In this document: positions 4,655 through 64,000 of the stretch, piece by piece
Position numbering within the stretch: position 1 is the first letter of the stretch
How the letters are laid out: every line of letters begins with the position of its first letter
Translations under genes and position numbers: made by a program
Sequence record: NC_070870.1
Direction: 5' to 3' (one strand)
Length of the DNA: 64,000 nucleotides
From: Escherichia phage phi G17
Notes under the pieces: generated by a model
The model's input: only the letters and a program-made list of their open reading frames with translations
Databases searched by the model: none
Told to the model about the DNA's origin: nothing

Positions 4655-5497
4655 ATGATTATGTCTTGTTCTGCTGAGGTAGAAGCTAACCGACTCCTAG
4701 AAGAGTTGACTAAGGGTGATGACTTTACCCTTCCTGATATTGATATGTCCGGCCCTGAATGGGATATCCCAGGTGGGGATGATTCCCCAATCTTTGGTGC
4801 TATTACCAAAGTAACTAATGAATCCCTTACTACCCGTGAAGTAGGGGGTAGTGGTACGTTCGATGCATTAATGGAATCTGCACACAACCATCTTAAAGCT
4901 GAGTTTAAAGCTAACCGTATTACCGGTGGTGAATATACCAAGGCATATATTGCTATGATGGAATCTTGCATGGGTAATGCTGTTCAGTTCTTACTTGGTC
5001 GTGACCAAGCATACTGGGCTGCTGCTATGGCACAGATTCAGGCAGTTACTGCACGTGTTCAACTGGCAACTTCTAAGGCACAGTTTGTACTGGCTAAGAT
5101 TCAGGCACTGTCTGCTAAGAGTGAATATGCCCTTACTAAGATGAAGATTGCTACCGAGTCTGAAACATACTGTGCTGCATTGTTTAATGCTAATCAGATG
5201 TTACCTCAACAGCTTAAGCTGATTACAGAACAGACCGAAGCACAACGTGCACAGACTCTGGATACCCGTACTGATGGTACTGCCGTTAAAGGTTCTGTAG
5301 GTAAACAGAAAGAGTTGTACACCCAACAGATTACTTCTTACCAACGTGATGCAGAAGTTAAAGCATCTAAGCTGTTTACTGATGCATGGATTACACAGAA
5401 GACTATTGATGAAGGCTTGAACCCACCTAATGGTTTCACTAACGCAAGTATTGATACCATTCTGACCAAGCTGAAGTCTAACAACGGGCTGAACTAA
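4655..5497 (+). CDS. Hypothetical virion protein (280 aa)
   Basis: ORF in late operon. Confidence 0.5.
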
Positions 5498-5498
5498 T

Positions 5499-8141
5499 AT
5501 GGGCTTATTCAGTGGGAAGACCAAAGTATACGTAGCATCCTCTGTCTATAACATGGCAGGGGATATACAGAAACGTCCAAACTATATGAAGACTGTAGTC
5601 ATAGGTAAGATTGTTGCTGATACAGGATTCACTATGGCAGACACTATCTCCGATAGTTATCTGAATGGGCCAGGTATTCGTATGCGACTGTTCTCTAGCT
5701 GGAGTAAGAACCACTATGACTCAGTAGTTGGTATGGCAGGTTCTTCATTAGGTGTACTAGCTAAGATTGACCCTACTGTTATAGAGGGACAAATTACCCC
5801 ACCTGCTGGAGAATCTGTATATGTTCAGGCAGCAGAGATTGGCTTTGCTGACTTTGAACAATGGTGTGACCAGTATCTTTATGAGAATGCCCCTAGTCGA
5901 ATCATGGAACGATTCGACGTAGACATTGACGAAGATACCAATGAAATTACTATGACCTCCTTAGATGGAGGTTCTACTATTACATTCACACCTGCTAACT
6001 TTGAACCAGGTGCTTTGTATCTCTATGCTGATTACACATTCTATAAGTCTCCATCTACCAATCCACCGGTAGTAGGGCCGACTACTGTATATGATAATGA
6101 GGATGACTTACCGTCTACTTTATTGTGGACTACCATTTCAAGTGATACGACTGCTAATACAACCAACCTTACTAAGACTATACAGACTCATTCTGTTTAC
6201 TCTGATGGTAGGCCGGATGAAGACAGTACTGTTACTGAACCAAGTGTGGATAACTGGAACTCCTACGTTAAGGTTTATCGTAGAGGATTCACTGAGAAAC
6301 CTGATGATGTAACTGTAGTTGTATCCGACAGGGTAATGACTCATACAAAGTTTGGTGAGATTCAAACCAGTACTGCTGTAACTACCAATGTTGTTGATTT
6401 AGGTGGGGGTGTTACCCGTACTGACACAATCACTACAACTACAGAGACGCTGGTTCGTAAGTACTCATCCCAGACTACCCGTACTGATACTGAGATGACT
6501 GCTGTTGGTACACCTAAGATGCTTATCTATAAGCAGAACTCTGGTAACGTTGCACTTGATTCACTGTTTGAGACTGAAGCTACCGATAACCGATTCTACC
6601 CATTCATTCCAATCAGGAATGATAAACAATGGGTAGAGAATGACCCAATCTACCCATACTGTAAGAAGGCTCTCTTTAAAGCTACCGGTGGTAAAATCAA
6701 TACAGTAATGACAGAGCTTAAGAAGAACGATGACATAGATGATATTCAGTACATCTATGGTTCATTCGGAGTATCTCTTAATACTCCAGAGGATACTGCT
6801 AAGGAATACATCTACCGTTTCTTTCAGATGGCTACTGAAGCATTTCCACCTGACCCAACCTACCCTACATTGGAAGCAGTGATTGCAGGTTATCAGGCAG
6901 CAAATGATGCAGTTGATGAATATGTAGAATGGTGGAACAGACAGGAAGGTCAGATTGTTGGAACACCTCCACCACTCCCGGAATACCCTGTCATACCTAA
7001 ACGAGAGTTTAGGGTACATAGTAATAAGCAGTACAAGTACGACATGACTATTGGCTGGAACTATGTATCTGAAACTACTCATTCAGGTGAAGCATGGTCT
7101 GGTGCTAAGCAGGGACAACTTCGAGCCAGATATGCAGGAGATATAACTCTTACTCGCAAGAACATACGTACAGGTGCTAACAACAAACTGGAAGTTACTA
7201 CTACGTTTTACTCTATGCAGGAGTACGAGTTACTTTGGCAGGATGGTAATGACACTTACCGTAAACTTAGAGTACTGGGTCTAAATCACAATAACAGGGT
7301 ATACAAAAATAAATCAGTAAGTATTGACGTTGCCGAAGCAATGGGTGATGCAGAAGAGAGTGGTTTCATTATTCCACTGCACACTAACATCTACCGTTCA
7401 ATGTCACTGGTTCGTAGTACCCAATTGTCTACTGCTTGCTCTTACTTAGTGATGAACTCATATAAGAAGGTTAAGCAGAAATGGTATACATCATCAGCCT
7501 TTAAGATTGTGGTTGTTGTAGTTGCTGTTGTTGTATCCGTATTCACTATGGGTGCTGGTGGTGCAGGTATTCTTGGGGCATATGGTGCAGTTGGTGCATC
7601 ACTTGGTTTTGTTGGATTAGCTGCTGTAATAGTGGGTGCTGTAGCAAACGCCATTGCTGCAATGATTCTGGTATCCATCATCACTAAAGTATCCACTTCA
7701 CTGTTTGGTGATAAGCTGGGCTTTATTGTTGCAGCTATTGCTTCAATGGTGGCTATGAACGTTGGTACTGCTATGTCTACTGGAACATCCTTATCCACCT
7801 TAGCTGGTGAAATGATGAATGCCCAAAACATCATGCAGCTTACTAGTTCAGTAGGTAATGGTATTAGTCAGTATATTAATGCATCCACGGCTGCTACTAT
7901 TCAGAAAGCAGAGAGTGTAATGCAGCAGTACAATACTGATATGATGGCAATCAATAAGCAGTATGAAGAAATGTTTGGTACTGCTGGTCAAGGTGTAATT
8001 GACCCTATGCAATTCGTGTCAATGGAGTCGATGGATTCTTTCCTCTCACGTACTCTCATGACTGGTTCAGATATAGCTGACATGTCCCTTAACATGGTTG
8101 GAAGCTACTCTGATATGACTCTTAATACTGACCTCGTTTAA
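5499..8141 (+). CDS. Large virion protein (880 aa) with Thr-rich middle and C-terminal Gly/Ala/Val-rich hydrophobic segments; candidate ejected membrane-inserting protein
   Basis: ATG at 5499 two nt after upstream stop; hydrophobic runs such as VVVVVAVVVSVFTMGAGGAGILGAYGAVGASLGFVGLAAVIVGAV. Confidence 0.55.
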   Translation: MGLFSGKTKVYVASSVYNMAGDIQKRPNYMKTVVIGKIVADTGFTMADTISDSYLNGPGIRMRLFSSWSKNHYDSVVGMAGSSLGVLAKIDPTVIEGQITPPAGESVYVQAAEIGFADFEQWCDQYLYENAPSRIMERFDVDIDEDTNEITMTSLDGGSTITFTPANFEPGALYLYADYTFYKSPSTNPPVVGPTTVYDNEDDLPSTLLWTTISSDTTANTTNLTKTIQTHSVYSDGRPDEDSTVTEPSVDNWNSYVKVYRRGFTEKPDDVTVVVSDRVMTHTKFGEIQTSTAVTTNVVDLGGGVTRTDTITTTTETLVRKYSSQTTRTDTEMTAVGTPKMLIYKQNSGNVALDSLFETEATDNRFYPFIPIRNDKQWVENDPIYPYCKKALFKATGGKINTVMTELKKNDDIDDIQYIYGSFGVSLNTPEDTAKEYIYRFFQMATEAFPPDPTYPTLEAVIAGYQAANDAVDEYVEWWNRQEGQIVGTPPPLPEYPVIPKREFRVHSNKQYKYDMTIGWNYVSETTHSGEAWSGAKQGQLRARYAGDITLTRKNIRTGANNKLEVTTTFYSMQEYELLWQDGNDTYRKLRVLGLNHNNRVYKNKSVSIDVAEAMGDAEESGFIIPLHTNIYRSMSLVRSTQLSTACSYLVMNSYKKVKQKWYTSSAFKIVVVVVAVVVSVFTMGAGGAGILGAYGAVGASLGFVGLAAVIVGAVANAIAAMILVSIITKVSTSLFGDKLGFIVAAIASMVAMNVGTAMSTGTSLSTLAGEMMNAQNIMQLTSSVGNGISQYINASTAATIQKAESVMQQYNTDMMAINKQYEEMFGTAGQGVIDPMQFVSMESMDSFLSRTLMTGSDIADMSLNMVGSYSDMTLNTDLV

Positions 8142-8154
8142 CAGGAGAATCCTC

Positions 8155-8598
8155 ATGGATTTGTCATTCTTAACAGGCAACCAAACCCCACAGCCAGCGG
8201 CTATGTCTTGGATGTCTAATAACAACCAGAACTTTAATACCCCAGCTATGAGCTATAACCCAGGTGCAGCTATTGGTATGGGTGCAGATACAGGAGTAGC
8301 CTCCCCTACTTCTTTCTTGTCTGGTTCAGCTAATCAGTTGGGCATGAACGTACCTACCTTCCAACTAGGACTGGGTGCACTTGGTTCATTAGCTAATATC
8401 TATGGTGGTTTCCAGGCTAACAAGTTAGCCAAAGACCAGCTGAATTTTACTAAGAGTGTTACTAACACTAACCTGAATAATCAGATTAAGTCTTATAACA
8501 CTGCACTGGAAGACCGTGCTCGTAGCCGTGCTACGGCAGAGAACCGTGACCAGACTTCGGCTGATGCGTACATTGCAGCTAATAAACTAACTCGTTAA
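8155..8598 (+). CDS. Hypothetical virion protein (147 aa)
   Basis: ORF in late operon. Confidence 0.5.
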   Translation: MDLSFLTGNQTPQPAAMSWMSNNNQNFNTPAMSYNPGAAIGMGADTGVASPTSFLSGSANQLGMNVPTFQLGLGALGSLANIYGGFQANKLAKDQLNFTKSVTNTNLNNQIKSYNTALEDRARSRATAENRDQTSADAYIAANKLTR

Positions 8599-8610: not shown

Positions 8611-10566
8611 ATGAGCCAGATAACATGGAGAAATGTTGATGCACCTAACTTCTCTGGAGTTGGTGACAGCATTCGCACATTTGGCAGCATGATTGGTAAC
8701 GCTACCTCCGGCTTGAGTGATGCACTGGGTAATTTCCAGAACGCTGCCAAGCAGGAGGCCGGCAATGCCGTCATGATGAATGCTATGCAATACCAAGACC
8801 CGAATGAGTACCGTAATGCTTTAGCATCCGGTGCATTGTTTCAGGGGGTTGACCCTTCACTAGTAAACCAGCGTACTCTCCAGAATCTGGATGAACGTGC
8901 AGGTACATTACTGACTCAACAAGGACAGCAGGGAACCAATGACTACAATGCCTATCGCTTTGGTCGTTTACAGGATACTAACTCTGCATTAGATAATGCT
9001 TCCCCTGCTATTCGTTTGCTGTCTGAGGCTTATCAGTCCGGTGACCAGAGCCGTATTAATGCAGCATTGGGACAGACTCGTGAGGCACTGTCTGCTCTCC
9101 CTGCTGACCAGCAACTTGAGATGCTGGGTCGTCTGCAAGGGCAAGGTGGTCAGGCTATTGGTCAGGCACAGAACCGTTTTGATTTGGGTGTTGCTCAACG
9201 TAATGATGCTGATAGTCAGGCAGCTATGGGTGTAATGTCACAGATTACCCGTGGTGCTGAGAACCCTAATGATGCTCGTCTGTTGGCTGAAGCATACAGT
9301 AAGAACCTGTCTCCAGTTGCACAAGCACGTTTGCAGGGATTACTGGCTAGTGCTTACCCGGGTGTATACGGTAACGGTGTTGGTGCTGCTTCTGCACCAG
9401 GTACTGCTGGTACTCGTCAGGGTTCTCCTTATGATGTTACTTACCAGTTTGCTGGTACATCCACTCCTATTACTCAAATGAGTATTGGTGATGTAATCAA
9501 ACACCAGGAAGGTATGAAGACGAACCAAGGTGCTTCACCTGTTGGTGCATTCCAGATTAACCAAGCTACCCTACAAGACTTCGCTCCCAAAGTTCTTGGT
9601 TCAGATTGGCAAAGCCAGCCACTCTCTGCTGAGAACCAGGATAAGATTGGTAAGGCTATCTTCGAACAGCGTAAGAATGGCAACCTTAAAGATACTTGGG
9701 CTGCACTTCCTAATGCTGGTGTTGGTGCTTATAAAGACATGACATGGGAAGAGATTAAACCAATCATTGCACAAGCAGAAGTTGGTGCTAATCCATTGGC
9801 TATGCGGCAGACTGCACAAGGCAACCAAGCCGTATCTACCTTGGCTCAAGGTATGATTGGTACTCGTTCTATGCAGGATAACACCGGCAGTCTTAACACT
9901 GACTTCCTTGGTACAGTCACTGATAATACCCCGGTAGGTGAGATTACTAACCGTCTGTTGGAAGGTGACTTTAAAGGTGCTGACCGTAACTGGGTACTGA
10001 ACCGACTGACTGATATTTCTCAACGTGGGAATATGTCACCAGCTATGGCTGCTGCTGTTATGCAACGTGCACAGACTGGCGTACCGGAGGGTTGGATTAG
10101 TCGTGCCATAGATGGGGTTAACCCATTCATTACTAATGAAGCTGGTAATGGTATGCGTCTTAATGACCGTCAGGTAGAACAGTTAATTGAAGGTGTAAAA
10201 CGAGGTGAACCACTGGAAGGTAGTGTACGTAACCTTGGACGTGCTCAAGCTGCACAGAGCATTCAGGCAGCACAGACTGCTTATGATGCTGCTGTAGCTG
10301 CACTGACTAATACCCAGAACAAGATTAACACTGGACAGAGTGGTCTTACTGCACTGTTACCTGCACGACAGGAAGCTGTTACTAGAGCTGCTGCAATGCT
10401 CCAGGCTGCACAGGCACAAGTACAAGCTGACCCAGCTAACCTGGCTCCAAGAGGTTTCCAGTCACAGTCTAGTGTGGACCGGGCACGAGCTAAGGAAGAT
10501 GAAGAACGTGCTGCACGGTACTTACGTCAGGCACAAGGTTTACCTGAGTATATGCAACCTCGCTAA
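8611..10566 (+). CDS. Virion protein (651 aa), Q/A-rich with coiled-coil-like C-terminus
   Basis: ATG at 8611; lies immediately upstream of the giant polymerase gene; followed by a strong terminator. Confidence 0.55.
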   Translation: MSQITWRNVDAPNFSGVGDSIRTFGSMIGNATSGLSDALGNFQNAAKQEAGNAVMMNAMQYQDPNEYRNALASGALFQGVDPSLVNQRTLQNLDERAGTLLTQQGQQGTNDYNAYRFGRLQDTNSALDNASPAIRLLSEAYQSGDQSRINAALGQTREALSALPADQQLEMLGRLQGQGGQAIGQAQNRFDLGVAQRNDADSQAAMGVMSQITRGAENPNDARLLAEAYSKNLSPVAQARLQGLLASAYPGVYGNGVGAASAPGTAGTRQGSPYDVTYQFAGTSTPITQMSIGDVIKHQEGMKTNQGASPVGAFQINQATLQDFAPKVLGSDWQSQPLSAENQDKIGKAIFEQRKNGNLKDTWAALPNAGVGAYKDMTWEEIKPIIAQAEVGANPLAMRQTAQGNQAVSTLAQGMIGTRSMQDNTGSLNTDFLGTVTDNTPVGEITNRLLEGDFKGADRNWVLNRLTDISQRGNMSPAMAAAVMQRAQTGVPEGWISRAIDGVNPFITNEAGNGMRLNDRQVEQLIEGVKRGEPLEGSVRNLGRAQAAQSIQAAQTAYDAAVAALTNTQNKINTGQSGLTALLPARQEAVTRAAAMLQAAQAQVQADPANLAPRGFQSQSSVDRARAKEDEERAARYLRQAQGLPEYMQPR

Positions 10567-10606: not shown

Positions 10607-10669
10607 TACACTGGCTTACTGTAGAGTAGGCTTCCTATATACGATATAAGTTTGAACAGGAAACATGCT

Positions 10670-13600
10670 ATGTCAACATTTGACCGTCTGGCAGGTTTCG
10701 CAGACAGCATCACTAATGCTAAGCAAGTCGATGTCTCTACTGCAACCTCTCAGAAGCAAGCTGCTCAAGGGCAAAGCCCTTTCCAATTAACCCCAGAGAA
10801 TGCTTACAATCTCCAGACTGGACGAGTAGGTAATCTTGGAACTGGTGCATTCGAACCAGGTTCACTTCAGGCTGATTTCACTCAAGCCTCTCCATTAGAA
10901 ATTATTAATAAGTACGGTAATGAGCAAGGTCTACAGATTCTTAATAGCCGAGCTAATGCTGCTGATGTTGTACGTCAGGACTTATCTAAACAGCGTACTA
11001 ACGCAGAAGCATTTGGCGATACTCTTTCTGGTGTTGGTCTTGGTGTTGCTAATACCCTTGGGGGCATTGCTGCTCTTGGCACAGGTCTGGTCAATGATAA
11101 TGCCGGGGCATCCATTGCTTCCGGGATGGATTGGCTGAATGAAGGTGTACGCAATCTCCAGTCTGATGCACTGAACGCTAATCGTAATGTTGTTCAGAAT
11201 CAGAACCAGATTACTGCACAAGAGAACCAGAAACTTTACGAACAAGATATTAAGAATGGGGAGAATGACTTAGTTGCCTCCTTGTCTCGCATTGGTCGTG
11301 ACGCTTTTGATTCTGTTGCTAATACACTTGATAATGGTATGGCTGCTTCCGATGGACTGAGTGAAGGCATTGGTTCCCTCTTTACCGGTGGCCCACTTAT
11401 CCGTGGTGTATCTGCACTTGGTAAAGTAATGGTAGGAGGTGATAAAGCTGTTAAGGGTATTACCTTAGCTGCTGAGTTAGGTTCACGTCCTGCACAGGTT
11501 GCACTGTCTGCCGGTCGTGTTGCTGCACCTGCTGTAGCAATCGGTGGTATGGAAGCTGGTGGTGCATACCAACAGACTGCTTCTGAAATCATGAAGATGT
11601 CCCATCAAGAATTGGCAAGTAAGTCTCCTGTTTACCAACAACATATTGCTGATGGTTTATCTCCTGATGAAGCACGTCGTCAGACTGCATCTGAAACAGG
11701 TATCACTGCTGCTGGCTTAACTGCTCCAGTTGCTGCTGCCACCGGTCCACTGGTATCTCGCTTTGAACTTAACCCACTTAAGGTAGGTTCACTGGCAGGT
11801 GCTGGTTCTAATATGCTGCGTGAAACAGTTGAAGAAGGTATTCAATCCGGCTTCGGACAGTTCGCACAGAACACTGCAATCAAGGAAAATGTTGATGCAT
11901 CCCGTGATACCCTCAAAGGGGTCGGTGAACAAGCAGGTCTGGGTGCACTCTATGGCTTCGGTAGTGCTGGAGTTGCTCAAGCTCCAGGTGCAACTGTTAA
12001 AGCTGCTGGTGCTGCCGTTGCTCCTGCTGTACGTACTACCCTGGCTGGTGCTTCTCTGGTTGGTAATGCATTAGCAAAAGCTGCCTCCCCTATTACTAAC
12101 ATCTTGGTTCAACGTGGCGAAGAAGTTGCTAAGCGTAATGAACAAGCGTCCCCTGTAGCAGATGCTACGGTTAGTGCTGCTGCACAGGAAGCTACTGCTC
12201 AGTCAGAACAAGCACAAGCAACTGTACAGGAAGCAGTAGATGCAATGGACATTACTCCTGAAGAGAAAGCTGCTGCTACTCAATATGCTTCTGACTTAAC
12301 ACAGGCAATGAACTTTGACCCAGTAGAAATAGAACAAGCTAATCCAGCAATCCGTGAAGCTGTTTCTGGTTCCACTAACCGTGTAGAAGCTATTCAGAAG
12401 ATGGCTGACTTGGTTAATACTGCTGAAGACCCTAACGTTCAAATGGAAGCTGCAATCCAGATGTATGACAATATTATGTCCATGGATAGCTTCATTAACC
12501 GTGACCCGGGTGCTCTGGCTAATCTGGAACAAGGTTCTCCTGCTGCTGCAATCGTAGACCAGTTCTCTGGCTTGATGGCTAACGTACAGAATACACCGAA
12601 GGTACTTCGTGCATTCCGTGCTATCCATTCCATGATTCAGGAACAGGCTGAAGCAGGTAAACTGAAAGCTACTGAAGAAGCTAACCAAGCCCAAGCAAAC
12701 AACATTGCTATGGCTGCTGATGTATCTCCAGAAGTGCTGGATGCTGATTCAGTGAACATGGTTCTGAAACACGCTAGCGAAGGTAAGATTACTCTGGGGA
12801 ATCGTCAACGTGCTGCCCTGCAATCGGCTGCTGCTGTCTTACAGGGTGCACGCGAGTTCGACGCTAAAGCAGAAGAACTAGGCTTACGACCTCAAGACAT
12901 TGTTAGTAAACAGATTAAGACCGACGAGTCTCGCTCTAATGAAGGCCAGTACTCTGCGTTGCAACATGCGAAACGCATTCGTTCTGCGTACAACTCTGGT
13001 AACTTCGATTTGGCCTCCGCTTATCTGAACGACTTTATGCAGTTCGCCCAGCACATGCAGAATAAGGTCGGAGCGTTGAATGAGCATCTGGTTTCGGGGA
13101 ATGCGGATAAGAATAAGTCTGTTCACTATCAGGCTCTCTCGCCTTCCCGTGAATGGGTACGTAGTCGTACTGGCCTCGGTGTCAATCCTTACGATACCAA
13201 GTCTGTTAAGTTTGCCCAGCAAGTAGGACTGGAAGCCAAGACCGTAGCTGATATTGCTAACGCACTTGCTACGGCTTACCCGGAGCTTAATGTTTCTCAT
13301 GTGAATGTTACCTCGTTGGATTCACGTCTGGACAAGCCAGCTGCCCAGGTAGTTAAAGAGTTCCGTCAAGGTGGTCTTGATGCCACTCAGTCTCAACAGA
13401 CTAATGAACCAGTGAATCAGGTTGATGAAACTCCTGCACCAGTGCAAGAGACTGCCCCCACTGTACAGCCTAAAGCTGAGCCGGTGGTAGAAAATAAACC
13501 TGCTCCTACTAAGGATACTAGTTCAAAAACAGAAGAAGTCTCTACTACTAAGTCTGAAACAGTGGATGCTACCCTCACTAATGAGGATACCACCCAGGAA

Positions 13601-16600
13601 GTAGCTGAAACTAAAACGGAAATGGAATCAGTGTTCCCTGTCTATAACAATGAAAAAACACCGAACCAGTTCCTGAAAGCATTTACTCTGCCGGAAGAAC
13701 CTAAGTCCCGTACCATTGGTTCTGAATCTCCTTTGACTGATGTTAAGCAAGCACTGTCTTCTGCTGCTCGCTTTGAAGCATTCACTCAAAAAGAAAATAA
13801 CGCTCTCACAGGTGATGTGATGAAACGTTATCAGGACTTGATGGACTTTGGTGAAACACTGAAGACTACTTTGTCTGACCGTCTGGCTAAGTTCCTTGCT
13901 AACAAGAATGTTGGTAAACGTTTTGCAGAAGGTACTGAAGCTAACCGTTGGGTAGGTGGAAAACTGCTGAATATCGTTGAGCAAGATGGTGATACCTTTA
14001 AGTTCAATAACCAGTTGTTAGAGACTGCTGTACTTGCTGGTCTGCAATGGCGACTGACTGCTACGCAGAATGCTGCCGTTAAAGATATGAAAGACGTAGC
14101 TGCTATTACTGGTGTAGAAGCATCTCTGTTACCAGAAGGTATTCTGGCTGAGTTTGAGAATGCTCAGACTCTGGTTGAAGCTACTAACTCACTGGCTCAA
14201 AAGATAGAATCCTATTGGGGTTTGAATCGTAATGCTAATGCACCACTGGGTTATACCAAAGGTATCCCAATGGCAATGGCTACAGAGATTCTGTCTTCCC
14301 TTATTGAGATGGGTGAAGTTAAAGAGTCTATGCTGGATGTGTCTGAAATTGACCCAGCCTCTAATAAGACTGTTGGTCTGTATACCATTGAAAAGCTGGA
14401 TGACAACGATGCTATTAACAAATTCCCTACTGCTATTGAGGAAGCTGTCCTCTTAGAACCAGAAGAGAAAATGTACTTTGGTGATGACATTCCTTCCGTG
14501 GCTCAAACTCAGTTACGTAACCCTGCTGTTAAGAATACCCCTGAACAGAAAGCTGCACTGAAAGCTGAACAGGCTACTGAGTTCCGTGTACACATGCCGA
14601 TGGTTAACTTCTATGAAGCAATGGGCCGTGAAAACATTCTGGAACTGATGGGTGCTGGTACTCTTAACCCTGAGCTACTGAACGTGAATACTGCTAAGTC
14701 ACTGGAAGGTAAAAACCTATCCGTGTCTATGGCATATGATTCTCTGTTCGGTGTTATCAGTCAGGTACGGGAACAAGAAGCAGGACTGGATACTCCTATC
14801 CATTATGGTTACAACATGACCCGTGTCGGTCGTATGCAGATGCTTGGCAAGAATAACCCACAATCCAGTAAACTGGTTCGTGAAGCAATTCTGCCAACCT
14901 TCTCTACTATCGACTTGAGTAATGAAAACAGCCAAACGTTCTCTGACTTCCAGTTAGGTCTGGCTCAGGCATTAGGTATCAAGGTACATAACATGTCCCG
15001 TGAAGCTATGTCTGAAAAGTTGACCAAGGCTCTGGAAGGTAATCTGAAACCTGCTGTTGATATGATGGTTGAGTTTGATAAGTCTGGTCACTTACCTACT
15101 GATGCAGTAGATATTCTGAAGACTTCTCTGGGTGGTGATAAATCCTTCGTAGCTCTCATGGCTCTGATGGAATATGCCCGTTACCTGAACAGTGACGACC
15201 GTGCCAACTTTAATACCCCACTGTACGTTGAAGCTGATGGTGTAACCAACGGCCCAATCAACGCAATGGTATTAATGACTGGTGGTAAGTTCACTCCAGA
15301 CTGGATTAAGAACACTGCTAAAGGTGGTCTTTTCTTTGATAAAGCTGGTAAGACTATGAACGAACATCGTTCACAGGATGACAGTGTTGACTTGTATGAA
15401 GCATCTACCAATGGTCTGCAACAAGCACTGAATGAGTTACGTACTACTTACCGTAACAACGTTCCTGTTATGAACCAGATGAATCATCTCCAGAAGATAA
15501 TGGACCTGTTCATTAAAGACTTTAACCTGAATGAAGACGGTACTCTGGACCTGAAACGTGGTATCGCTAAGAACCCACTCACCATTACCATCTATGGTTC
15601 TGGTGCACGTGGTATTGCTGGCAAGATGGTTAGTGCAATTACTGATACCATCTATGAACGCTTCAGCGACGTTCTGCAAGCACGTGCTGCTGACCCTAGC
15701 ATTTCCCCAGCTATGGCAATGTTTGGTAAGGAGGCTGCGTCTGAGGCCGATGCTCAGGCTATGCTGGATACTTTCCTTACTTCTATGGAAGCACTGACAG
15801 GTAATGTTCCAGTTATGCGTAAGGGTGAATTGTCTATTCAGCAAGCAGAAGGTGCACTGACTGGTAAGTTAGACCCTCAGAAGTTTACTGTATCTGGCAA
15901 TGCTCTGAAGAACTTACAAGAGAACATGCTCCACCTGTTCGTTGAACCAATGCGTACCGGTATCCAGAATACTGTTGGTGAAGGTCTGATGCACTCTACT
16001 GAGAACTTGCAGAAGGCTACCCAGATTCAATCTCTGGTATTGCAGGATATGTTCCAACAAGCAGTACAGGCTAAGCTGGCAGAAAAAGAAAATGACCCAA
16101 CCTGGAAGAAGGGTGATTTCTTAACTCAGAAAGAACTGAATGAAATCCAGGAATCATTATCTCCACTGGCCCCAATGATTGAGACTGGTTCACAGACTTT
16201 CTACATTGCTGGTAGTGAGAATACTGATGTTGCTAACCAAGTACTGGCTACCAACTTAGATGACCGTATGCGTGTGCCAATGAGCATCTATGCTCCTTCA
16301 CAAGCAGGTGTTGCAGGTATTCCATTTATGACCATCGGTACTGGTGATGGCATGATGATGCAGACTCTTTCTACTATGAAAGGTGCTCCGAAGAATACCC
16401 TGAAAATCTTTGATGGTATGAACATTGGTATCAATGACATCACTGATGCAAGTCGTAAAGCAAATGAGGCTGTATACACTTCTTGGCAGGGGAACCCTAT
16501 CAAGAATGTTTACGACTCCTACGCTAAGTTCATGAAGAATGTAGACTTCAGCAAACTGTCTGATGAAACTAAACAGGCTATCGCTAAGTCTGCTCTGGAA

Positions 16601-19600
16601 TATGACCAGCGTGAAGGTGCTACAGATGACCTGTTACGTGTAGGTGCTGAGCAGATTGAACGTAACCTGCGTAACATTGCTCTGGGTGTAGATATTCGCC
16701 ACAAAGTAATGAACCAGGTACAGACCACTGTTGACCAGATGGCTGCTGTAGGTGCTCCTTATGTGAACAACGGTAAAATCTCTCTGGAAGGTCTGACGGT
16801 AGACCAGCAAGTAGCTAAGCTGAACGAACTGTTTGATGCTGAATTAAACAAGCGTCGTGATGCAGTACGTGCTGCTAAAGCAGAACCAGTGAAAGAAGTA
16901 CCGGCAATGGAACAAGTTGGTCGTGTGCTTAAGTCAGGTGTACGTCTGCTGTCCAATACTGCCATTACTAAACTGGCTAAAGAGATGTCCCCAGAACAGC
17001 AAGCAGTATTGAAAGAAGTACAGAACTCCCTTGCTGCTAAAGACTACAAGGTTGTTTATGGTACTCCTGCTCAACTGGATGCTTATGCTATTGAGAAGAA
17101 CATTACTCGCCCAGCACCGGAAGATATTGAAGCTGCTGAAGCAGGTAATGCATACGGCTGGACTAACTTTGATGATAAGACTATCTACTTAGTTACCCCT
17201 TCCTTAGAGACTCTGGTTCATGAATTGGTACATGCTTCTACTTTTGAATCTGTACTGGCTCACTACGAGGGTACTCCTAATGAAGCAGTCCAGAATATTG
17301 AAGACTTGATGAACCAGTTCCGTGCTCTGGATGTTAAGGATGAATCCCCGGCAGTACGTGAAGCATATGCTGATGCACTCAATACCATTAACGGTCACTT
17401 GTCTAATGGTTTCATTGAGCCAGCAATGTCTAAAGCTGCTGCACTGAATGAGTACATGGCATGGGGCTTAACCAACCGTGAACTGATTGGTAAGCAGAAG
17501 AAGACCACTGCACTGAAAGCTATGGTTCAGTCTGTGTATGAAGCAATTAAGCGTCTGGTATTTGGTCGTAAGAAAGCACCTGTTAATGCAGATGATATGT
17601 TCTCTGGCTTACTGTTTAACTCATCTGTAGTTATGCGTGGACAGGCTCCTACTGCTGCTGTATCCAAGGACACTACCTTGTTCCATAGCAAAGCATATGG
17701 TGACAATACTCGTCTGGAAGAGTTAGGGCAGACCTTTGATAAGCTGATTACTAACTACATTGGTTCTGAACCAGTACAGCAAGTAATCCGTAAAGGTAAG
17801 TTTTCTGATGCAGTAGTGAATGCAACTAAAGTAACCCGTGATGTTCAGGCTCATGGCTTTACTATGAATATGCAGGAACAGCGACTGTTCACTAATATTG
17901 TTGCTGCTTTGGCTACTGAAGCTGCTATTAGTCCGGCTGCTCTTTCTCGTGCACAGGAATATTATGCACATGTTACTAAGAATCTGACTGTTGAAGCATT
18001 CATGACAGACCCGGATAGTACTAACCCTGCTGACCGTTATTATGCACAGCAGAAGTTCGATACCATCATGGGTGCTAATAATATTGAGTATGATGCACAG
18101 GGTCGTTCTTCCTTACTGCCTACCTTTGTGGCTCTGGCAATGGTAAGTGAAGATGTACGTAATGTACTGGCTGACATTCCTGTTATGAAAGCAGATAAGC
18201 AATCCGGTAATACCGTTGATGCAATGCTGACTAACATTGGTACTGCTGCAATGGCTAGCCTGAATGCTCGTGTAGCAGGTGACACTAAAGCTACTAACGT
18301 ACAGGAAGGTATGGATGCACTGGCTCAGACAATCATGCAGACTAGTCTTAATGCACAGTCATTCTATGATTCCATTGCTACCCCTAGTGGTAATGCTATC
18401 GACCGTGCTAACCAGTATCTGGTGGACTCTATTGATGTACTGTCCACCCGTGCTTTAGATGGTGCACGTGAGGTTGCAGCTAATACCAAGAATCCGTTGG
18501 TTAAGGGTGCTGCTCATGCTGCTCAACTGGTAGCTGCCATTGCTACAGAGAAGAATGGTGCAATCGTAGCTGAAGGTGTTATGGCTGCAATGAACCAGGG
18601 TAAAGCATGGCAACCTTTCCATGACCTGGTTAATGACTTAACCGGTCGTACTAAGAGCAATGCTTCTGTGTATGATTTAATTAAAGCAGTTCGTGCACAG
18701 GTACAGGCTGACCGTCAACAGTTCCGTGAACATCTGCCTACCACTATCGCATCTAAGTTCAGCCGTAAGCTGACCAATGATGAATGGAAAGCAATGCACA
18801 CTGGTATGGGTAAAACTGATTTGGCTGTTCTGCGTGACACTATGTCTCTGGCTGAAATCCGTGACTTGCTGACTGACCAGAAGATTGTTGACCGTGAAGT
18901 GAATAAGCTGGAAGCAGATTTGCAGAAGCAAGCTGGTCGTAACTGGCCCCTGATTAATCGTAAATCTAAGCAACTGGCTCAGTACATGATTAACGGTACA
19001 GTCGGTAATAACCTGCTGCGTAATGCTACTGCAATCTCCCGTATGCTGGGTGAACGTCAGGCTGCTCGCTCTACCGTAGATGTAGCTCAACTGGATAAAC
19101 TGATTACTCTGTATGCACTGGAAGCAATGAACAAGAAAGACCGTGAGATGTTATCTTCACTGGCTCAATCAGAAGTTGATGGAATGGACTTTGTTACTTC
19201 TTATCTGGTTGGTCAGCGTAAAGATGAAATGGCTAAAGCCAAATCTGATATGCGTGCAACCCTGAACCAGTACAAAGGGCATATCCCTAGCGAGAACAAA
19301 CAGGGTGTTAATCTGATTGTTGCTGAAGATAGTCAGTTTGCTGATTTGATTGAGAAGTCTTATGTACGTCTGGGTACTTATCAGGGTAGCTCTGCTAACC
19401 GTGGTCCGGCACGTAGCTACTACTTCGCACCAGTACAGGCACAGGCTCCATTCTCACAGGGTATCCTACAGAACGTTCGTAATACTGCTGGTGGTGTAGA
19501 CCTCGGCACAGGTTTTACGATGGGTTCAATGGTGGCTGGTCGTATTACTGACAAGCCTTCTGTAGACCGTATTACTAAAGCACTGGCTCGTGGTGAGCGT

Positions 19601-21022
19601 GGTAATGAACCACTGCTGCCTGTATATGATGACAAAGGTAATGTGGTTGCCTATGAGCAATCAATTGACCCTAACATGCTGAAGCACATTGAAGGCGAGA
19701 ATCACCTTGCCCGTGCAATCGGTGTATGGCGTGGTCGTCAGGTTGAAGAAGCTAAGGCACAGCGTTTCAACGATATGCTGATTGAGAACCTGCATAGCAT
19801 GTACGAGAACGACATTAAAATGTCTGCCTCTAATAAGTCCCAGTACGTGAACCTTCTTGGTTCTAAACTGGACCCAGTAACTGCTGATGCGCTTAAGCTG
19901 ATGAACAGTGAAACTCGTCAGAAAGCAGAGAGCCTGTTTGGTGAGGGCGAACTATGGGTACGTCGTGACATGCTGAATGATGCACTAGGTTATCGTGCAG
20001 CTTCAGTTGGTGATGCATGGTCTGGTAACTCTCGTTGGTCCCCGGAAACTCTGGATACCTTCAAGAAAGCTATGCTGGGTGTATTCGGCAACCGTGCTTA
20101 TAAGTACACAATGGGTGGAGAGAACCTGGTTCAGAACTTAGTTAAAGAAGCCAAGACTCTGATTGTAGTTAAGTCAGTAGTCGTACCTGCTGTTAACTTC
20201 TTGGCCAACCTTTACCAGATGGTTGCTCGTGGTGTACCGGTTAAGAACATTGCTAAGAGCATTCCACAGAAAACTGCTGAGATTAACCAGTACCTGAAAT
20301 CTCGTCTGCGTCAGGTGGATGCAGAAGCAGAATTACGTGCAGCTACTAACCCGAACCAGATTCGTAAACTTAAGGCTGAGATTCAGTCCATCTCTGATAG
20401 CCATAAGCGTATGAGTATCTGGCCCCTGTTGGAAGCTGGTGAGTTCTCTTCAATTGCAGATGCTGGTATTGGTCGTGATGACATCCTGATTACTGAGGGT
20501 AAGATTCACGAATACATGGATAAGCTGGCTGATAAGTTGCCCAAGTCTGTACGTACTGCTGGTCGTTATGCACTTATCACTAAGGATACTGCTCTGTTCC
20601 AGGGCATCCAGAAGACGGTTGAGTACTCTGACTTTATTGCTAAAGCAATCATCTACGATGAACTGACCCAGCGTAAAGGTAAGACTCGTGAAGAGGCACT
20701 TGGTCGTGTAACGGAAGAGTTCGTTAACTATGACCGTCTGCCTGGTCGCTTCCGTGGATATATGGAAAGCGTTGGTTTAATGTGGTTCTACAACTTTAAG
20801 ATTCGTTCTGCAAAAGTTGCAGTATCCATGATTCGTAATAACCCAGTACATGCAGCAATGGCTATGTTGGCTCCAACTCCTACCATGTTTGGTAATGTTG
20901 GCTTACCTATTCAGGACAACATCTTCAGCATTGCAGCACAGGGTAACATGGGTTACTCGTGGGGCTTTGGTCAGGGACTTCGTGCTCACAACCTTAACCC
21001 TTGGCTGAACTTAACTAACTAA
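10670..21022 (+). CDS. Virion-encapsidated RNA polymerase (vRNAP, about 3450 aa)
   Basis: Giant ORF; central region carries T7-like motifs: VEADGVTNGPINAM (motif A-like), RGIAKNPLTITIYGSGARG (motif B, R/K...YG), KIFDGMNIG (motif C-like); track start at 10652 is TTG, an ATG at 10670 has AGGA 9 nt upstream. Confidence 0.85.
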   Translation: MSTFDRLAGFADSITNAKQVDVSTATSQKQAAQGQSPFQLTPENAYNLQTGRVGNLGTGAFEPGSLQADFTQASPLEIINKYGNEQGLQILNSRANAADVVRQDLSKQRTNAEAFGDTLSGVGLGVANTLGGIAALGTGLVNDNAGASIASGMDWLNEGVRNLQSDALNANRNVVQNQNQITAQENQKLYEQDIKNGENDLVASLSRIGRDAFDSVANTLDNGMAASDGLSEGIGSLFTGGPLIRGVSALGKVMVGGDKAVKGITLAAELGSRPAQVALSAGRVAAPAVAIGGMEAGGAYQQTASEIMKMSHQELASKSPVYQQHIADGLSPDEARRQTASETGITAAGLTAPVAAATGPLVSRFELNPLKVGSLAGAGSNMLRETVEEGIQSGFGQFAQNTAIKENVDASRDTLKGVGEQAGLGALYGFGSAGVAQAPGATVKAAGAAVAPAVRTTLAGASLVGNALAKAASPITNILVQRGEEVAKRNEQASPVADATVSAAAQEATAQSEQAQATVQEAVDAMDITPEEKAAATQYASDLTQAMNFDPVEIEQANPAIREAVSGSTNRVEAIQKMADLVNTAEDPNVQMEAAIQMYDNIMSMDSFINRDPGALANLEQGSPAAAIVDQFSGLMANVQNTPKVLRAFRAIHSMIQEQAEAGKLKATEEANQAQANNIAMAADVSPEVLDADSVNMVLKHASEGKITLGNRQRAALQSAAAVLQGAREFDAKAEELGLRPQDIVSKQIKTDESRSNEGQYSALQHAKRIRSAYNSGNFDLASAYLNDFMQFAQHMQNKVGALNEHLVSGNADKNKSVHYQALSPSREWVRSRTGLGVNPYDTKSVKFAQQVGLEAKTVADIANALATAYPELNVSHVNVTSLDSRLDKPAAQVVKEFRQGGLDATQSQQTNEPVNQVDETPAPVQETAPTVQPKAEPVVENKPAPTKDTSSKTEEVSTTKSETVDATLTNEDTTQEVAETKTEMESVFPVYNNEKTPNQFLKAFTLPEEPKSRTIGSESPLTDVKQALSSAARFEAFTQKENNALTGDVMKRYQDLMDFGETLKTTLSDRLAKFLANKNVGKRFAEGTEANRWVGGKLLNIVEQDGDTFKFNNQLLETAVLAGLQWRLTATQNAAVKDMKDVAAITGVEASLLPEGILAEFENAQTLVEATNSLAQKIESYWGLNRNANAPLGYTKGIPMAMATEILSSLIEMGEVKESMLDVSEIDPASNKTVGLYTIEKLDDNDAINKFPTAIEEAVLLEPEEKMYFGDDIPSVAQTQLRNPAVKNTPEQKAALKAEQATEFRVHMPMVNFYEAMGRENILELMGAGTLNPELLNVNTAKSLEGKNLSVSMAYDSLFGVISQVREQEAGLDTPIHYGYNMTRVGRMQMLGKNNPQSSKLVREAILPTFSTIDLSNENSQTFSDFQLGLAQALGIKVHNMSREAMSEKLTKALEGNLKPAVDMMVEFDKSGHLPTDAVDILKTSLGGDKSFVALMALMEYARYLNSDDRANFNTPLYVEADGVTNGPINAMVLMTGGKFTPDWIKNTAKGGLFFDKAGKTMNEHRSQDDSVDLYEASTNGLQQALNELRTTYRNNVPVMNQMNHLQKIMDLFIKDFNLNEDGTLDLKRGIAKNPLTITIYGSGARGIAGKMVSAITDTIYERFSDVLQARAADPSISPAMAMFGKEAASEADAQAMLDTFLTSMEALTGNVPVMRKGELSIQQAEGALTGKLDPQKFTVSGNALKNLQENMLHLFVEPMRTGIQNTVGEGLMHSTENLQKATQIQSLVLQDMFQQAVQAKLAEKENDPTWKKGDFLTQKELNEIQESLSPLAPMIETGSQTFYIAGSENTDVANQVLATNLDDRMRVPMSIYAPSQAGVAGIPFMTIGTGDGMMMQTLSTMKGAPKNTLKIFDGMNIGINDITDASRKANEAVYTSWQGNPIKNVYDSYAKFMKNVDFSKLSDETKQAIAKSALEYDQREGATDDLLRVGAEQIERNLRNIALGVDIRHKVMNQVQTTVDQMAAVGAPYVNNGKISLEGLTVDQQVAKLNELFDAELNKRRDAVRAAKAEPVKEVPAMEQVGRVLKSGVRLLSNTAITKLAKEMSPEQQAVLKEVQNSLAAKDYKVVYGTPAQLDAYAIEKNITRPAPEDIEAAEAGNAYGWTNFDDKTIYLVTPSLETLVHELVHASTFESVLAHYEGTPNEAVQNIEDLMNQFRALDVKDESPAVREAYADALNTINGHLSNGFIEPAMSKAAALNEYMAWGLTNRELIGKQKKTTALKAMVQSVYEAIKRLVFGRKKAPVNADDMFSGLLFNSSVVMRGQAPTAAVSKDTTLFHSKAYGDNTRLEELGQTFDKLITNYIGSEPVQQVIRKGKFSDAVVNATKVTRDVQAHGFTMNMQEQRLFTNIVAALATEAAISPAALSRAQEYYAHVTKNLTVEAFMTDPDSTNPADRYYAQQKFDTIMGANNIEYDAQGRSSLLPTFVALAMVSEDVRNVLADIPVMKADKQSGNTVDAMLTNIGTAAMASLNARVAGDTKATNVQEGMDALAQTIMQTSLNAQSFYDSIATPSGNAIDRANQYLVDSIDVLSTRALDGAREVAANTKNPLVKGAAHAAQLVAAIATEKNGAIVAEGVMAAMNQGKAWQPFHDLVNDLTGRTKSNASVYDLIKAVRAQVQADRQQFREHLPTTIASKFSRKLTNDEWKAMHTGMGKTDLAVLRDTMSLAEIRDLLTDQKIVDREVNKLEADLQKQAGRNWPLINRKSKQLAQYMINGTVGNNLLRNATAISRMLGERQAARSTVDVAQLDKLITLYALEAMNKKDREMLSSLAQSEVDGMDFVTSYLVGQRKDEMAKAKSDMRATLNQYKGHIPSENKQGVNLIVAEDSQFADLIEKSYVRLGTYQGSSANRGPARSYYFAPVQAQAPFSQGILQNVRNTAGGVDLGTGFTMGSMVAGRITDKPSVDRITKALARGERGNEPLLPVYDDKGNVVAYEQSIDPNMLKHIEGENHLARAIGVWRGRQVEEAKAQRFNDMLIENLHSMYENDIKMSASNKSQYVNLLGSKLDPVTADALKLMNSETRQKAESLFGEGELWVRRDMLNDALGYRAASVGDAWSGNSRWSPETLDTFKKAMLGVFGNRAYKYTMGGENLVQNLVKEAKTLIVVKSVVVPAVNFLANLYQMVARGVPVKNIAKSIPQKTAEINQYLKSRLRQVDAEAELRAATNPNQIRKLKAEIQSISDSHKRMSIWPLLEAGEFSSIADAGIGRDDILITEGKIHEYMDKLADKLPKSVRTAGRYALITKDTALFQGIQKTVEYSDFIAKAIIYDELTQRKGKTREEALGRVTEEFVNYDRLPGRFRGYMESVGLMWFYNFKIRSAKVAVSMIRNNPVHAAMAMLAPTPTMFGNVGLPIQDNIFSIAAQGNMGYSWGFGQGLRAHNLNPWLNLTN

Positions 21023-61014: not shown

Positions 61015-61725
61015 ATGCAGAAATTATCGGAAGTATACCGTGGCTTGGCACTGAGTACCTTGAAGGGTACTGGTTCAGTCACAGATGACAGACTAGGTAT
61101 TGAACCAGATAGTAAGCCGGAGATACTGGCAGCTATTAATGAAGGGCTGGTACGACTACATAGTCGTTTCCCTCTTAAGACTAATAGCTGCATTGTGGAG
61201 ATGAAGGAAGGACGCACTGATTATCCTCTTCAATCCAAATATGCTTACTCCAGATTTACTAAGCCTACTCTTGAGATTCAGTATCCCTACATTATGGATG
61301 GGTTCATGAAACCTTTTCAGGATGATGTTATTAAAATCTTAAATGTGTTTGATAACTCTGGGAATCGACGTAGACTGAACGACGATTCAGACCCTCGTGC
61401 TATCTTCACCCCACGACCTGATACTATTCAGTGTATGCGTCCTCGACACTTCGAGGCACTTAACGTAACGTATCAAGCTAAGCACCCAGTGCTTACGGGT
61501 GATGAAGAACAGGAAGTTGACTTAGCTGATACGCTAATGACAGCACTTCATAACTGGGTGGGTTATCGTTACCACACTGGTTTGAATACTCCTGAAGCTA
61601 ACGCTAAAGCAGCAGAGTATCTGCAAACGTATGAAAGCATCTGTGGTGAGGTTGTTGATTACGACCTGGCTAATGGAAGTATTTCAATTACCGAAACTAA
61701 ATTTGAACAACGAGGATGGCGATGA
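61015..61725 (+). CDS. Hypothetical virion/tail protein (236 aa)
   Basis: ORF following terminase. Confidence 0.5.
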   Translation: MQKLSEVYRGLALSTLKGTGSVTDDRLGIEPDSKPEILAAINEGLVRLHSRFPLKTNSCIVEMKEGRTDYPLQSKYAYSRFTKPTLEIQYPYIMDGFMKPFQDDVIKILNVFDNSGNRRRLNDDSDPRAIFTPRPDTIQCMRPRHFEALNVTYQAKHPVLTGDEEQEVDLADTLMTALHNWVGYRYHTGLNTPEANAKAAEYLQTYESICGEVVDYDLANGSISITETKFEQRGWR

Positions 61726-62852
61726 ACGCACATACCCCCTTTGATGCAAATAAGGATTGGACCAATCCTTACTGTCAGAACAGTTCCAATGACCCAATGG
61801 TAGATGCACTACTTGGTAATGCTTACCATGTAGTTCGTACTGTCTACTGTAACTTGGGTAATCTGAAACTTATCTACGATTTCCTGAACCAGTATGGGAT
61901 GGTTCTTGGTGTACAGTCTGAAGCAGAACTTAAGGCTTTAACTACTAAAGCTACCTTTGCTCGTATCTATGATAAGACTCCTGCTGGTGACCGACAGGTT
62001 ACTGATTACTTGTACGTGGAAGGTGACCGTACTGGTATCACTCCCGATGATACTGCTGCTACTGGGTCGTGGATTAAAGTAGCAACATCTAGCCAGGAAG
62101 ATGGTAATAACGGTAATGCATCTACATATGTAGTTTGGGGATACACTGCTACCGGTGGAGAAAATACCATTACAGTCCCAACTGATACGGTAGGTGTAGC
62201 CTTCATAACCGTGAACGGATTTACTCAAACAAATGGCAAGGGTTACAGTTTTAATGCTGAGTCTGGTGTAGTTACTCTAGCCCAATCATTGGAAGCCGGT
62301 GAAGAAGTTCTAATGTTTCTTACTGGAATGCCAGCTGTACCGGACACCCTTAGTATTGATAACTGGCGTGTAGTTAACTGGCTCTATAATCAAGGGGCTG
62401 CTGTTGGTGGTGAGCAGGTTATTAATATCCCATTCGTATTTGCAGACGTATCAGCAGTTTACGTAAACGGTTCACGTTTATACAAAAACCTCAGTAATAT
62501 GTCTTATGAAATTGATGTGCCTAACAGAAGGATTTTCCTAACAGAACCACTGACAGTAAATGACAGGGTTATTCTTACTATTGGTGGTACAGAGGAAACT
62601 ATTCAGGTATCTGACAGGACTTTGCAAGAAGTTGCTCGTGGATTTAACCTGAAGGATTCAGAGGTTATTCTGGATAGTGATCATACAACTTTCCTGAACA
62701 ATAAGAAGGTTGTATATGTTAGCAATCAGCAGAAGTCCTATAAGTTACCGACCCTCCCTCCGAATGTAAGTATTGCTGGTGTAGTTGGTGACCAACTAAC
62801 CTATGTTCCAGGGAACATTACTGTTACTTTGCTCCCTATTACTATCATCTAG
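61716..62852 (+). CDS. Hypothetical tail protein (378 aa)
   Basis: ORF, overlapping start; T/G/V-rich beta-rich composition. Confidence 0.5.
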   Translation: MAMNAHTPFDANKDWTNPYCQNSSNDPMVDALLGNAYHVVRTVYCNLGNLKLIYDFLNQYGMVLGVQSEAELKALTTKATFARIYDKTPAGDRQVTDYLYVEGDRTGITPDDTAATGSWIKVATSSQEDGNNGNASTYVVWGYTATGGENTITVPTDTVGVAFITVNGFTQTNGKGYSFNAESGVVTLAQSLEAGEEVLMFLTGMPAVPDTLSIDNWRVVNWLYNQGAAVGGEQVINIPFVFADVSAVYVNGSRLYKNLSNMSYEIDVPNRRIFLTEPLTVNDRVILTIGGTEETIQVSDRTLQEVARGFNLKDSEVILDSDHTTFLNNKKVVYVSNQQKSYKLPTLPPNVSIAGVVGDQLTYVPGNITVTLLPITII

Positions 62853-62913: not shown

Positions 62914-64000
62914 ATGAACGAAATGTTCTCTCAAGGCGGTAAAGGTTCAACTGGAATCTTAACCAATAAACAAGCAATAGCCCGTCACTTTGGGGTTAAA
63001 CAATCTGAGGTTGTTTACTTCTCGGTGGGTGCTCTACTTACTGGTTACAAAGTCATCTATGACAAAGTGACACAGCGTGCTTACTCATTACCTGCTGATA
63101 TTGGTTCAGGTGTTACTGCTGTAAGCCTTAGTCCTGCTGGGGTGTTAGTTCACTCTGCCGGTAATGTGGATCTGGGTGAGTTAGCAGTATCTCGCGAAGA
63201 GTATGTAACCTTACCGGGTTCATTTGATACTGGCGTAACAGTTAATACTAAGAATGAACTGGTTGTCTTTACTGATGGTAAATACCGTTGGGATGGGGCA
63301 TTACCTAAAGAAGTGCCTACTGGCTCAACACCTGCATCAACCGGTGGTGAGGGTGCCGGCAAGTGGCTGAGTGTTGGTGTTGCAGCATTGCGTAGCAATT
63401 TATCATCAACATCTGGCGCTACGTTAATTGGCACTGGTGACGGCTCTACTTTACAGGAGTATGTTGACAATTGCCAATATGTAGAATCCTTTCAATCGGC
63501 AACTGCATTATCATCTGTAAGACCTGAAGTTAAAAAAATTGTTACATTAAGGTATTATGCTTCGTTACCATCTGGTGCTTTTCACACTCATTATTCAGGT
63601 AACACCTTTATCCGTAGTGGAACAGGAACCCCAGGCGAAACAGATGGTGGTAGCTATTTTGTGCTTTCAGATGGGTCTAAGTGGGTTACTTGTTTACCTA
63701 TTCATGTAGACAGATTTGGTGCATGTGGTGGCGTAGCCCCAGTTACATTTGATTCTGGTCCCGCATTCCAGAAAGCTGTAATTGCTGTAGGTAAAAGTGC
63801 GTATTCATCTTCTGGATTGGTTCATATGGACGGTCCGGTATACAATATAAATACTAAGGTGTTATGGCCTTCTAATGTAACTTTTGTGGGTAATCAGACC
63901 ACAATCGTATCCTCATCTTCTAATTATATATTTGAGAGCGGTTACTTTAGTTCAGGGGATCTGGTAACGAACTGGGGTCTTGATGATACTACCTTGGTTG
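62914..64000 (+). CDS. Tail fiber/tailspike-like protein, N-terminal part (ORF open to window end, at least 362 aa)
   Basis: ATG at 62914 with GAGG upstream; translated by hand with no stop to position 64000; G/S/T-rich with repeated VxxxG beta-like segments. Confidence 0.5.
   Translation, partial: MNEMFSQGGKGSTGILTNKQAIARHFGVKQSEVVYFSVGALLTGYKVIYDKVTQRAYSLPADIGSGVTAVSLSPAGVLVHSAGNVDLGELAVSREEYVTLPGSFDTGVTVNTKNELVVFTDGKYRWDGALPKEVPTGSTPASTGGEGAGKWLSVGVAALRSNLSSTSGATLIGTGDGSTLQEYVDNCQYVESFQSATALSSVRPEVKKIVTLRYYASLPSGAFHTHYSGNTFIRSGTGTPGETDGGSYFVLSDGSKWVTCLPIHVDRFGACGGVAPVTFDSGPAFQKAVIAVGKSAYSSSGLVHMDGPVYNINTKVLWPSNVTFVGNQTTIVSSSSNYIFESGYFSSGDLVTNWGLDDTTLV

Follow-up and report, generated by a model that had tools for sequence, protein, structure and literature searches.

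What is the role of an 880-residue protein, encoded among the tail and ejection genes of Escherichia phage phi G17, in which some 100 residues toward the C-terminus consist largely of Gly, Ala, and Val and carry almost no charge? The gene occupies positions 5499..8141 (+) of the 64,000-nucleotide stretch of DNA analysed here (sequence record NC_070870.1; hereafter the window), starts with ATG, and specifies 880 aa plus a stop codon, for a product of about 96.7 kDa. An initial annotation described a virion protein with glycine-zipper-like segments suggestive of membrane insertion, and offered it as a candidate for the channel through which DNA and the virion RNA polymerase (vRNAP) enter the cell. 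The present analysis leads to a different reading, in which the gene product is very probably a monomeric tail plug, of the N4 gp53 and DEV gp74 kind, of a G7C/Moonfish-like podophage. The orthology, domain layout, conservation, and gene order on which this reading draws were all computed here. The phage is an N4-family (Schitoviridae) podophage, near Shigella phage Moonfish and the G7C-like Gamaleyavirus group. The tail plug family itself is already known from electron cryomicroscopy (cryo-EM) of N4 and DEV in 2025-26, and the protein described here (the plug protein) is a further ortholog.

A phmmer search of PDB sequences aligned residues 1-879 of the plug protein with residues 1-883 of N4 gp53 (PDB 9YFT chain FA; E = 0). 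The two proteins are collinear over their full length and 54.9% identical in a global alignment, and the phmmer alignment runs residue-for-residue across the hydrophobic block. The match to DEV gp74 (9ZE4_M, ‘N4 gp53-like protein’; E = 3e-14) falls mainly in the C-terminal third, including the hydrophobic block. Judged by sequence, the plug protein is clearly a full-length ortholog of N4 gp53 and a remote homolog of DEV gp74. Nearer relatives are Moonfish gp12 (98.5% identical), the orthologs of G7C-like phages (about 92-97%), and Moo19 gp70 (69%). The protein also matches profile positions 1-847 of 850 of PHROG 2220, a family of function ‘unknown’. When it was cut into four pieces, each scanned against PHROGs, PHROG 2220 alone was matched significantly; no other phage family in that library carries the C-terminal module, and a Pfam scan of the plug protein returned no family.

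The N-terminal motif MGLFSxK (aa 1-7, window 5499-5520) is almost invariant family-wide, DEV gp74 included. For Moo19 gp70, the annotated coding sequence (CDS) starts 15 codons 3′ of the point at which the tblastn match begins, at the conserved MGLFSxK (Moo19 6001-6046), and the motif suggests that the Moo19 start may be mis-called.

The virion location, the copy number, and the knot discussed below come from the N4 and DEV cryo-EM papers, in which gp53 and gp74 are each a monomeric tail plug (PMC13434306; PMC12892993). N4 gp53 was found in virions by liquid chromatography-mass spectrometry (LC-MS) and modelled in the cryo-EM density (Bellis et al., Nat Commun 2026, PMC13434306). Its residues 29-56 and 670-716 form a ‘hydrophobic knot’ inside the tail-tube base, the hydrophobic region comprises six short α-helices, and density for the last ~160 residues is lost in the tail lumen (PMC13434306). 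The plug core is bound by one protomer of the gp65 sheath (D9-D10, with gp64), giving a 12:6:1 ‘tail-gating complex’, and emptied N4 particles still bear the plug, for which the authors propose lateral displacement followed by re-binding (PMC13434306). In DEV, the receptor-binding fibre gp56-gp55-gp54 holds the equivalent plug, gp74, which has no feather (see below) (PMC12892993). Moo19 gp70 (96 kDa) has been found by virion mass spectrometry (PMC11654681), and LIT1 gp74 was likewise detected by mass spectrometry (PMC3715699). That the gene encodes a virion protein, as initially annotated, is thus borne out by orthology, through the LC-MS and cryo-EM data on N4 and the mass spectrometry of Moo19 and LIT1.

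We built an AlphaFold2 (AF2) model of the plug protein on a 42-sequence alignment. The model is confident for aa 1-660, predicted as a mixed α/β core from which four strands of 24-29 residues are set apart as a long sheet. A Foldseek search of this model against the PDB (entries released up to April 2026) gave 9ZE4_M as the top match, with E = 2.8e-17, a Foldseek probability of 1.0, and a target-normalised template modelling score (TM-score) of 0.55; 9YFT was absent among the matches from this library.

The domain layout follows that of N4 gp53. An N-terminal knot segment, aa 29-56 (5583..5666, +), corresponds exactly to N4 gp53 29-56, with 64% identity and AF2 helices at 29-40 and 46-55. The β-feather, aa 211-334 (6129..6500, +), is formed by AF2 strands 211-234, 241-269, 272-300, and 306-334, with a predicted local distance difference test score (pLDDT) of about 90 that rises to 94 when the feather is modelled alone. 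Its strands are polar, Thr-rich, and 40% identical to those of N4; feather and core surface together are the most diverged parts relative to N4 (40-42% identity). A conserved globular segment follows at aa 601-664 (7299..7490, +). It is 78% identical to N4, has the highest family conservation among the regions tested (majority fraction 0.68), and closes with a basic KKVKQKWY motif directly N-terminal to the hydrophobic block. The first, or knot, half of that block, aa 670-716 (7506..7646, +), again corresponds exactly to N4 670-716 and is 68% identical. The second half, aa 717-765 (7647..7793, +), is 78% identical to N4 and has predicted helices at about 709-736 and 738-760, the junction between them (737-739) being a conserved G-D/E-K turn. 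The remaining residues, aa 766-880 (7794..8138, +), make up an acidic, Met-rich helical tail with a net charge of -9 and 12% Met.

A candidate kinship of the β-feather with aerolysin-type β-pore-forming toxins was considered as a recurring weak theme of the Foldseek searches, in which secretins also appeared for the full model and YwiB recurred for the feather. The lead was dropped: TM-scores for the feather alone were all ≤ 0.29, with root-mean-square deviations above 12 Å, and the polar, Thr-rich strands are without amphipathic alternation. We judge the resemblance between feather and toxins to be a generic likeness of long β-sheets.

The hydrophobic block was delimited with Kyte-Doolittle 19-residue windows (mean ≥1.6), which mark aa 670-688, 691-709, 710-728, and 740-758 and nowhere else in the protein. 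On a second scale, Wimley-White octanol, the windows are 666-684, 710-728, and 742-760, with a weaker one outside the block at 623-641. Gly, Ala, and Val account for 52% of aa 665-765 versus 20% of the remaining protein, and the only charged residues within 668-764 are K669, K730, D738, and K739. The best 100-aa window has a mean hydropathy of 1.68, compared with 0.44 ± 0.14 for shuffled sequences (2000 shuffles, maximum 1.16; z = 9). The 880-aa open reading frame (ORF) and its hydrophobic Gly/Ala/Val block are therefore real, the block spanning aa ~666-760, but the block is not the end of the protein as had been described, since the 115-aa acidic tail (766-880) lies beyond it. The term ‘glycine-zipper-like’ also finds no support once composition is allowed for: GxxxG occurs twice versus 1.7 times expected from composition, and neither [GAS]xxxGxxx[GAS] (4 versus 2.2 expected, P = 0.18) nor small-xxx-small (20 versus 17.4 expected, P = 0.2) is enriched. 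A helical rather than a buried β character, on the other hand, agrees both with AF2, which predicts helices at low confidence, and with the six short α-helices of N4.

Conservation was examined in 42 homologs, down to 29% identity. Across this set, positions 670-725 hold no charged residue at all, and N717 is invariant. G693, G703, and G737 are Gly in 100% of the sequences that have a residue there; G690, G699, G706, G713, and G741 are Gly in 93-98%. Identity to N4 is also higher in the block (68-78%) than over the full protein (55%). This conservation, together with the invariant or nearly invariant glycines and N717, fits specific packing. In the tail, Met makes up 14 of 115 residues (12%) versus 3% in the rest of the plug protein, an enrichment that is strongest in enterobacterial phages. 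Every one of the 42 aligned homologs has a net-acidic tail, as do 98.6% of 143 additional representatives of 50%-identity clusters. Such an acidic, Lys/Arg-poor tail would fit a segment beside the DNA end, and by analogy with N4 it is expected in the tail lumen.

The distribution of the C-terminal module was followed with a phmmer search of the last 280 aa against 1.84 billion cluster representatives, which returned 1453 matches, 549 of them at E ≤ 1e-30. Among the best 150 of the 1453, the module stands at the C-terminus of every gp53-like protein listed (150/150), and no new architecture was found. The lengths of the matched proteins form two peaks, 860-940 aa (proteins with the feather) and 700-799 aa (DEV-like); fewer proteins are intermediate or shorter. 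In the 143 further representatives, transmembrane (TM)-like windows lie, with one exception, within the last 260 aa, and 117-165 residues follow them. As read from these sequences, the family architecture is a variable core that may carry a feather, a conserved docking segment, an uncharged helical block of ~100 residues, and an acidic tail of ~120 residues.

Transferred to phi G17, for which we infer both an equal arrangement and the identity of the gating partner, the N4 and DEV structures suggest how the plug protein would work. A single copy would cap the distal end of the dodecameric gp54-like tail tube, with its N-terminal ~660 residues, that is, the globular core and the long β-feather, outside the tube. 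The Gly/Ala/Val-rich helices of aa 670-716, together with aa 29-56, would pack as a tight hydrophobic knot that plugs the mouth of the tube, and aa 717-765 and the acidic tail 766-880 would run up the lumen beside the gp52 copies and the DNA end. Engagement of the receptor by the tailspike apparatus would displace the plug, upon which the gp52-like, gp51-like, and vRNAP proteins and the DNA could exit.

Part of the proposed role in DNA and polymerase entry is retained in this scheme, in that the protein would sit where DNA and polymerase leave the particle; the formation of a channel is not. In N4, residues 29-56 and the first half of the block are a cork in the tube base rather than a pore through a membrane, emptied particles keep the plug, and the channel is assigned to gp52, gp51, and the vRNAP N-terminal domain. 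Specifically, gp52 provides the portion in the outer membrane and gp51 a tunnel through the periplasm, and each forms channels in planar bilayers; the portion in the inner membrane is attributed to gp51 together with the N-terminal domain of vRNAP (PMC13434306). The abstract of that paper names gp51 as the outer-membrane part and gp52 as the tunnel; the results, the legend to Fig. 8, and the discussion have it the opposite way, and the version in the body is used here (PMC13434306).

Several points weigh against the tail plug reading. In N4 itself, half of the block plus the tail are without resolved density (PMC13434306), and for Moo19, the closest solved relative, there is only weak unmodelled density at the tube tip (PMC11654681). 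The AF2 model of aa 662-880 is helical and unplaced, with pLDDT about 30-50, and a model that does not place the hydrophobic block does not discriminate between a cork and a membrane segment. The knot proposed for phi G17 is transferred, by analogy, from the description in the N4 paper. A simple cork would have no obvious need for ~100 uncharged residues whose TM-like character exceeds that of every segment in the gp51- and gp52-like proteins. Lastly, tblastn with N4 gp64 and gp65 found nothing in the complete tail module of St11Ph5 or in the window, which is estimated from the 69,166-bp Moonfish genome to leave out ~5 kb of the phi G17 genome.

If no gp64 or gp65 homolog is present, then plug retention and receptor sensing must depend on a partner other than that of N4, as they do in DEV, and the gating mechanism must differ from N4 in detail. 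Phages of this type have a gp66-like base protein plus tailspikes in place of the N4 sheath. In the window, a 378-aa protein, the gp66-like fibre base (61716..62852, +), matches B2 Gp49 and the initial ~375 residues of the tail fibre of Moo19 (9D80_D); its similarity to N4 gp66 is confined to about 75 residues at the N-terminus. On the 3′ side of its gene, an ORF at about 62914-64000 (+) runs off the end of the window and is taken for a putative tailspike gene. The tail-fibre module differs from that of G7C/St11Ph5, which looks like a modular exchange of receptor-binding proteins.

The hydrophobicity of the block bears most directly on an alternative in which the plug doubles as a membrane pilot: block and tail would leave the lumen first, insert as α-helices into the outer membrane, anchor the tail, and nucleate or line the gp52 channel. 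The block does hold three to four uncharged segments of bilayer length (666-684, 691-709, 710-728, and 740-760) behind the basic KKVKQKWY flank, and it is conserved family-wide, but a folded knot would account at least equally well for Gly and Asn being conserved at particular positions. It is far more hydrophobic than the gp51- and gp52-like proteins, whose N4 counterparts form channels; those counterparts, however, make channels in bilayers by themselves, and three to four helices in a single copy cannot line a channel of ~35 Å. The second half of the N4 block and the tail lie in the lumen below the ejection proteins, so that they would be first out, yet plug density is present on emptied N4 particles and lateral displacement was proposed rather than ejection. 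Homology to a known channel or ejection protein was not found across Pfam, PDB, and PHROGs: Pfam gave no family, and the PDB matches were confined to gp53 and gp74. If true, the pilot role would explain why the segments of a cork are more TM-like than the channel proteins themselves, and why block plus tail are the most conserved, always C-terminal module (1453 matches; 150/150 among those listed). Taken together, we consider a role of this kind unlikely.

Much less probable still is that the block works in the infected cell, either as an inner-membrane anchor during tail assembly or as a holin-like lysis protein. Its segments do resemble classical TM helices with a positive N-terminal flank, and a preprint on N4 lysis describes gp53 as a late protein with predicted TM domains and reports a Q98R change in a rapid-lysis line. 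The rebuilt N4 gp53 Q98R nevertheless gave no rapid lysis, and close relatives carry a cassette of holin, endolysin, and spanin beside the portal gene. In addition, the block is partly resolved as a folded knot in the tail tube of the N4 virion, and the gene lies in the tail and ejection block. That the hydrophobicity arose by chance from composition, or that the frame was mis-called, a concern prompted only by the fact that an ORF listed mechanically need not be a gene, has practically no likelihood given z = 9 against shuffles, retention of the block in the 42 homologs (to 29% identity) and the 143 further representatives, and the observation of homologs by mass spectrometry and in cryo-EM density.

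The neighbouring genes place the tail plug gene between tail tube and ejection proteins, and phi G17, N4, St11Ph5, Moonfish, and Moo19 share the order tube, plug, gp52, gp51, vRNAP. The gp54-like tail tube protein (4655..5497, +; 280 aa) matches the Moo19 tail protein 9D80_C with E = 3e-149 and N4 Gp54 (9LC0, 9YF4, 9YF5, and 9YFT) with E = 5e-125. On the other side of the plug gene, the gp52-like ejection protein (8155..8598, +; 147 aa) matches the N4 16.5 kDa protein (9YF4_OA, E = 1e-43) and DEV gp73 (8VXQ, E = 8e-5), and the gp51-like ejection protein (8611..10566, +; 651 aa) matches the N4 66 kDa protein (PDB 11MN, E = 1e-126). The gp50-like vRNAP, of about 3450 aa, was assigned to 10652..21022 (+) from its ORF and from synteny with St11Ph5, Moonfish, and the N4 vRNAP. 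Toward the other end of the window, a gp67-like head-to-tail adaptor (61015..61725), recognised by comparison with solved structures and matched by 9D80 chain B, adjoins the fibre base gene described above.

Only 1 nt lies between the stop codon of the tube gene and the ATG of the plug gene (TAA-T-ATG), which is preceded by a weak GGG and no good Shine-Dalgarno sequence; the gp52-like gene has AGGAG 7 nt 5′ of its ATG. No promoter or terminator signals stand out inside the block of genes. Translation of the plug may thus be coupled to that of the tube, at low output. A coupled start with no good Shine-Dalgarno sequence would fit the presence of one plug versus 12 copies of gp52.

Further observations concern the annotation of these neighbours. 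The mechanical ORF of the vRNAP starts at a TTG at 10652, and the annotated Moonfish start corresponds to a position ~18 nt downstream. The gp52-like protein is positive on the Wimley-White scale at aa 65-83, near the TM helix reported for N4 gp52 (72-88). The same protein gave a sub-threshold Pfam match to ‘Bacterial toxin 22’ (Ntox22; E = 0.002, 18.5 bits versus a cutoff of 25), which is probably due to chance. A gp57-like protein of 406 aa (1436-2656, +) is called ‘tail length tape measure protein’ in both PHROG 2120 and RefSeq. Its gene has the portal/gp58 genes on one side and the major capsid gene on the other, the label is odd for a short-tailed phage, and the annotation may be wrong. 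In the PDB, 9D80 chain B is Gp83 (234 aa) and matches the gp67-like adaptor of the window, and the vRNAP-adjacent Moo19 protein (1965-nt CDS, about 654 aa, about 70 kDa) occupies the position of the gp51-like gene in the window, N4, and St11Ph5; the two labels in Table 1 of the Moo19 paper look swapped.

The assignment has a practical consequence, in that the gene is called ‘hypothetical protein’ or left unannotated in nearly all of the ~110 phage GenBank records among the matches listed and can now be annotated as a tail plug. The holding and release of the plug couple receptor recognition to genome ejection and thus bear on host range and particle stability, for which the leakage of DNA in DEV gp56 mutants offers a parallel. 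Some phages of the G7C/Moonfish type were isolated on pathogenic E. coli or Shigella.

Among known systems, N4 gp53 is the nearest to the phi G17 plug protein. It has the same layout of core, β-feather, block, and acidic tail, the same knot numbering, and the same gene position between gp54 and gp52. It differs in being held by the gp65 sheath with gp64, which have no homolog found in the phi G17 window or the St11Ph5 tail module. DEV gp74 is alike in being the best fold match in the PDB, in the position of its gene downstream of the tube gene, and in sitting as a monomer on a 12-mer tube. It is shorter (740 aa) and has no β-feather, its anchor is the gp56-gp55-gp54 fibre, and its block differs in detail; for example, N717 is not kept in the phmmer alignment. 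The ejection proteins (gp52, gp51, and the gp50 N-terminal domain of N4, gp73 and gp72 of DEV, and gp14, gp15, and gp16 of T7) share with the plug a place in the late block, a part in opening the path for DNA and protein, and hydrophobic helices. They differ in being multi-copy (about 12 in the virion), ejected, and able to form bilayer channels, whereas the plug is a single copy at the tube tip, and no sequence kinship between them and the plug protein was found in Pfam or the PDB. Siphophage tape-measure proteins such as T5 pb2 also have hydrophobic segments at the C-terminus, which are stored in the tail lumen and may be the first to meet the host membrane. Comparisons through Pfam, PDB, and Foldseek detected no homology of the plug protein to tape-measure proteins or to tail needles. 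The tail needles of P22 (gp26) and Sf6 close the tail channel as the plug does, but they achieve this closure as trimeric coiled coils and not as an asymmetric monomer (PMC12892993).

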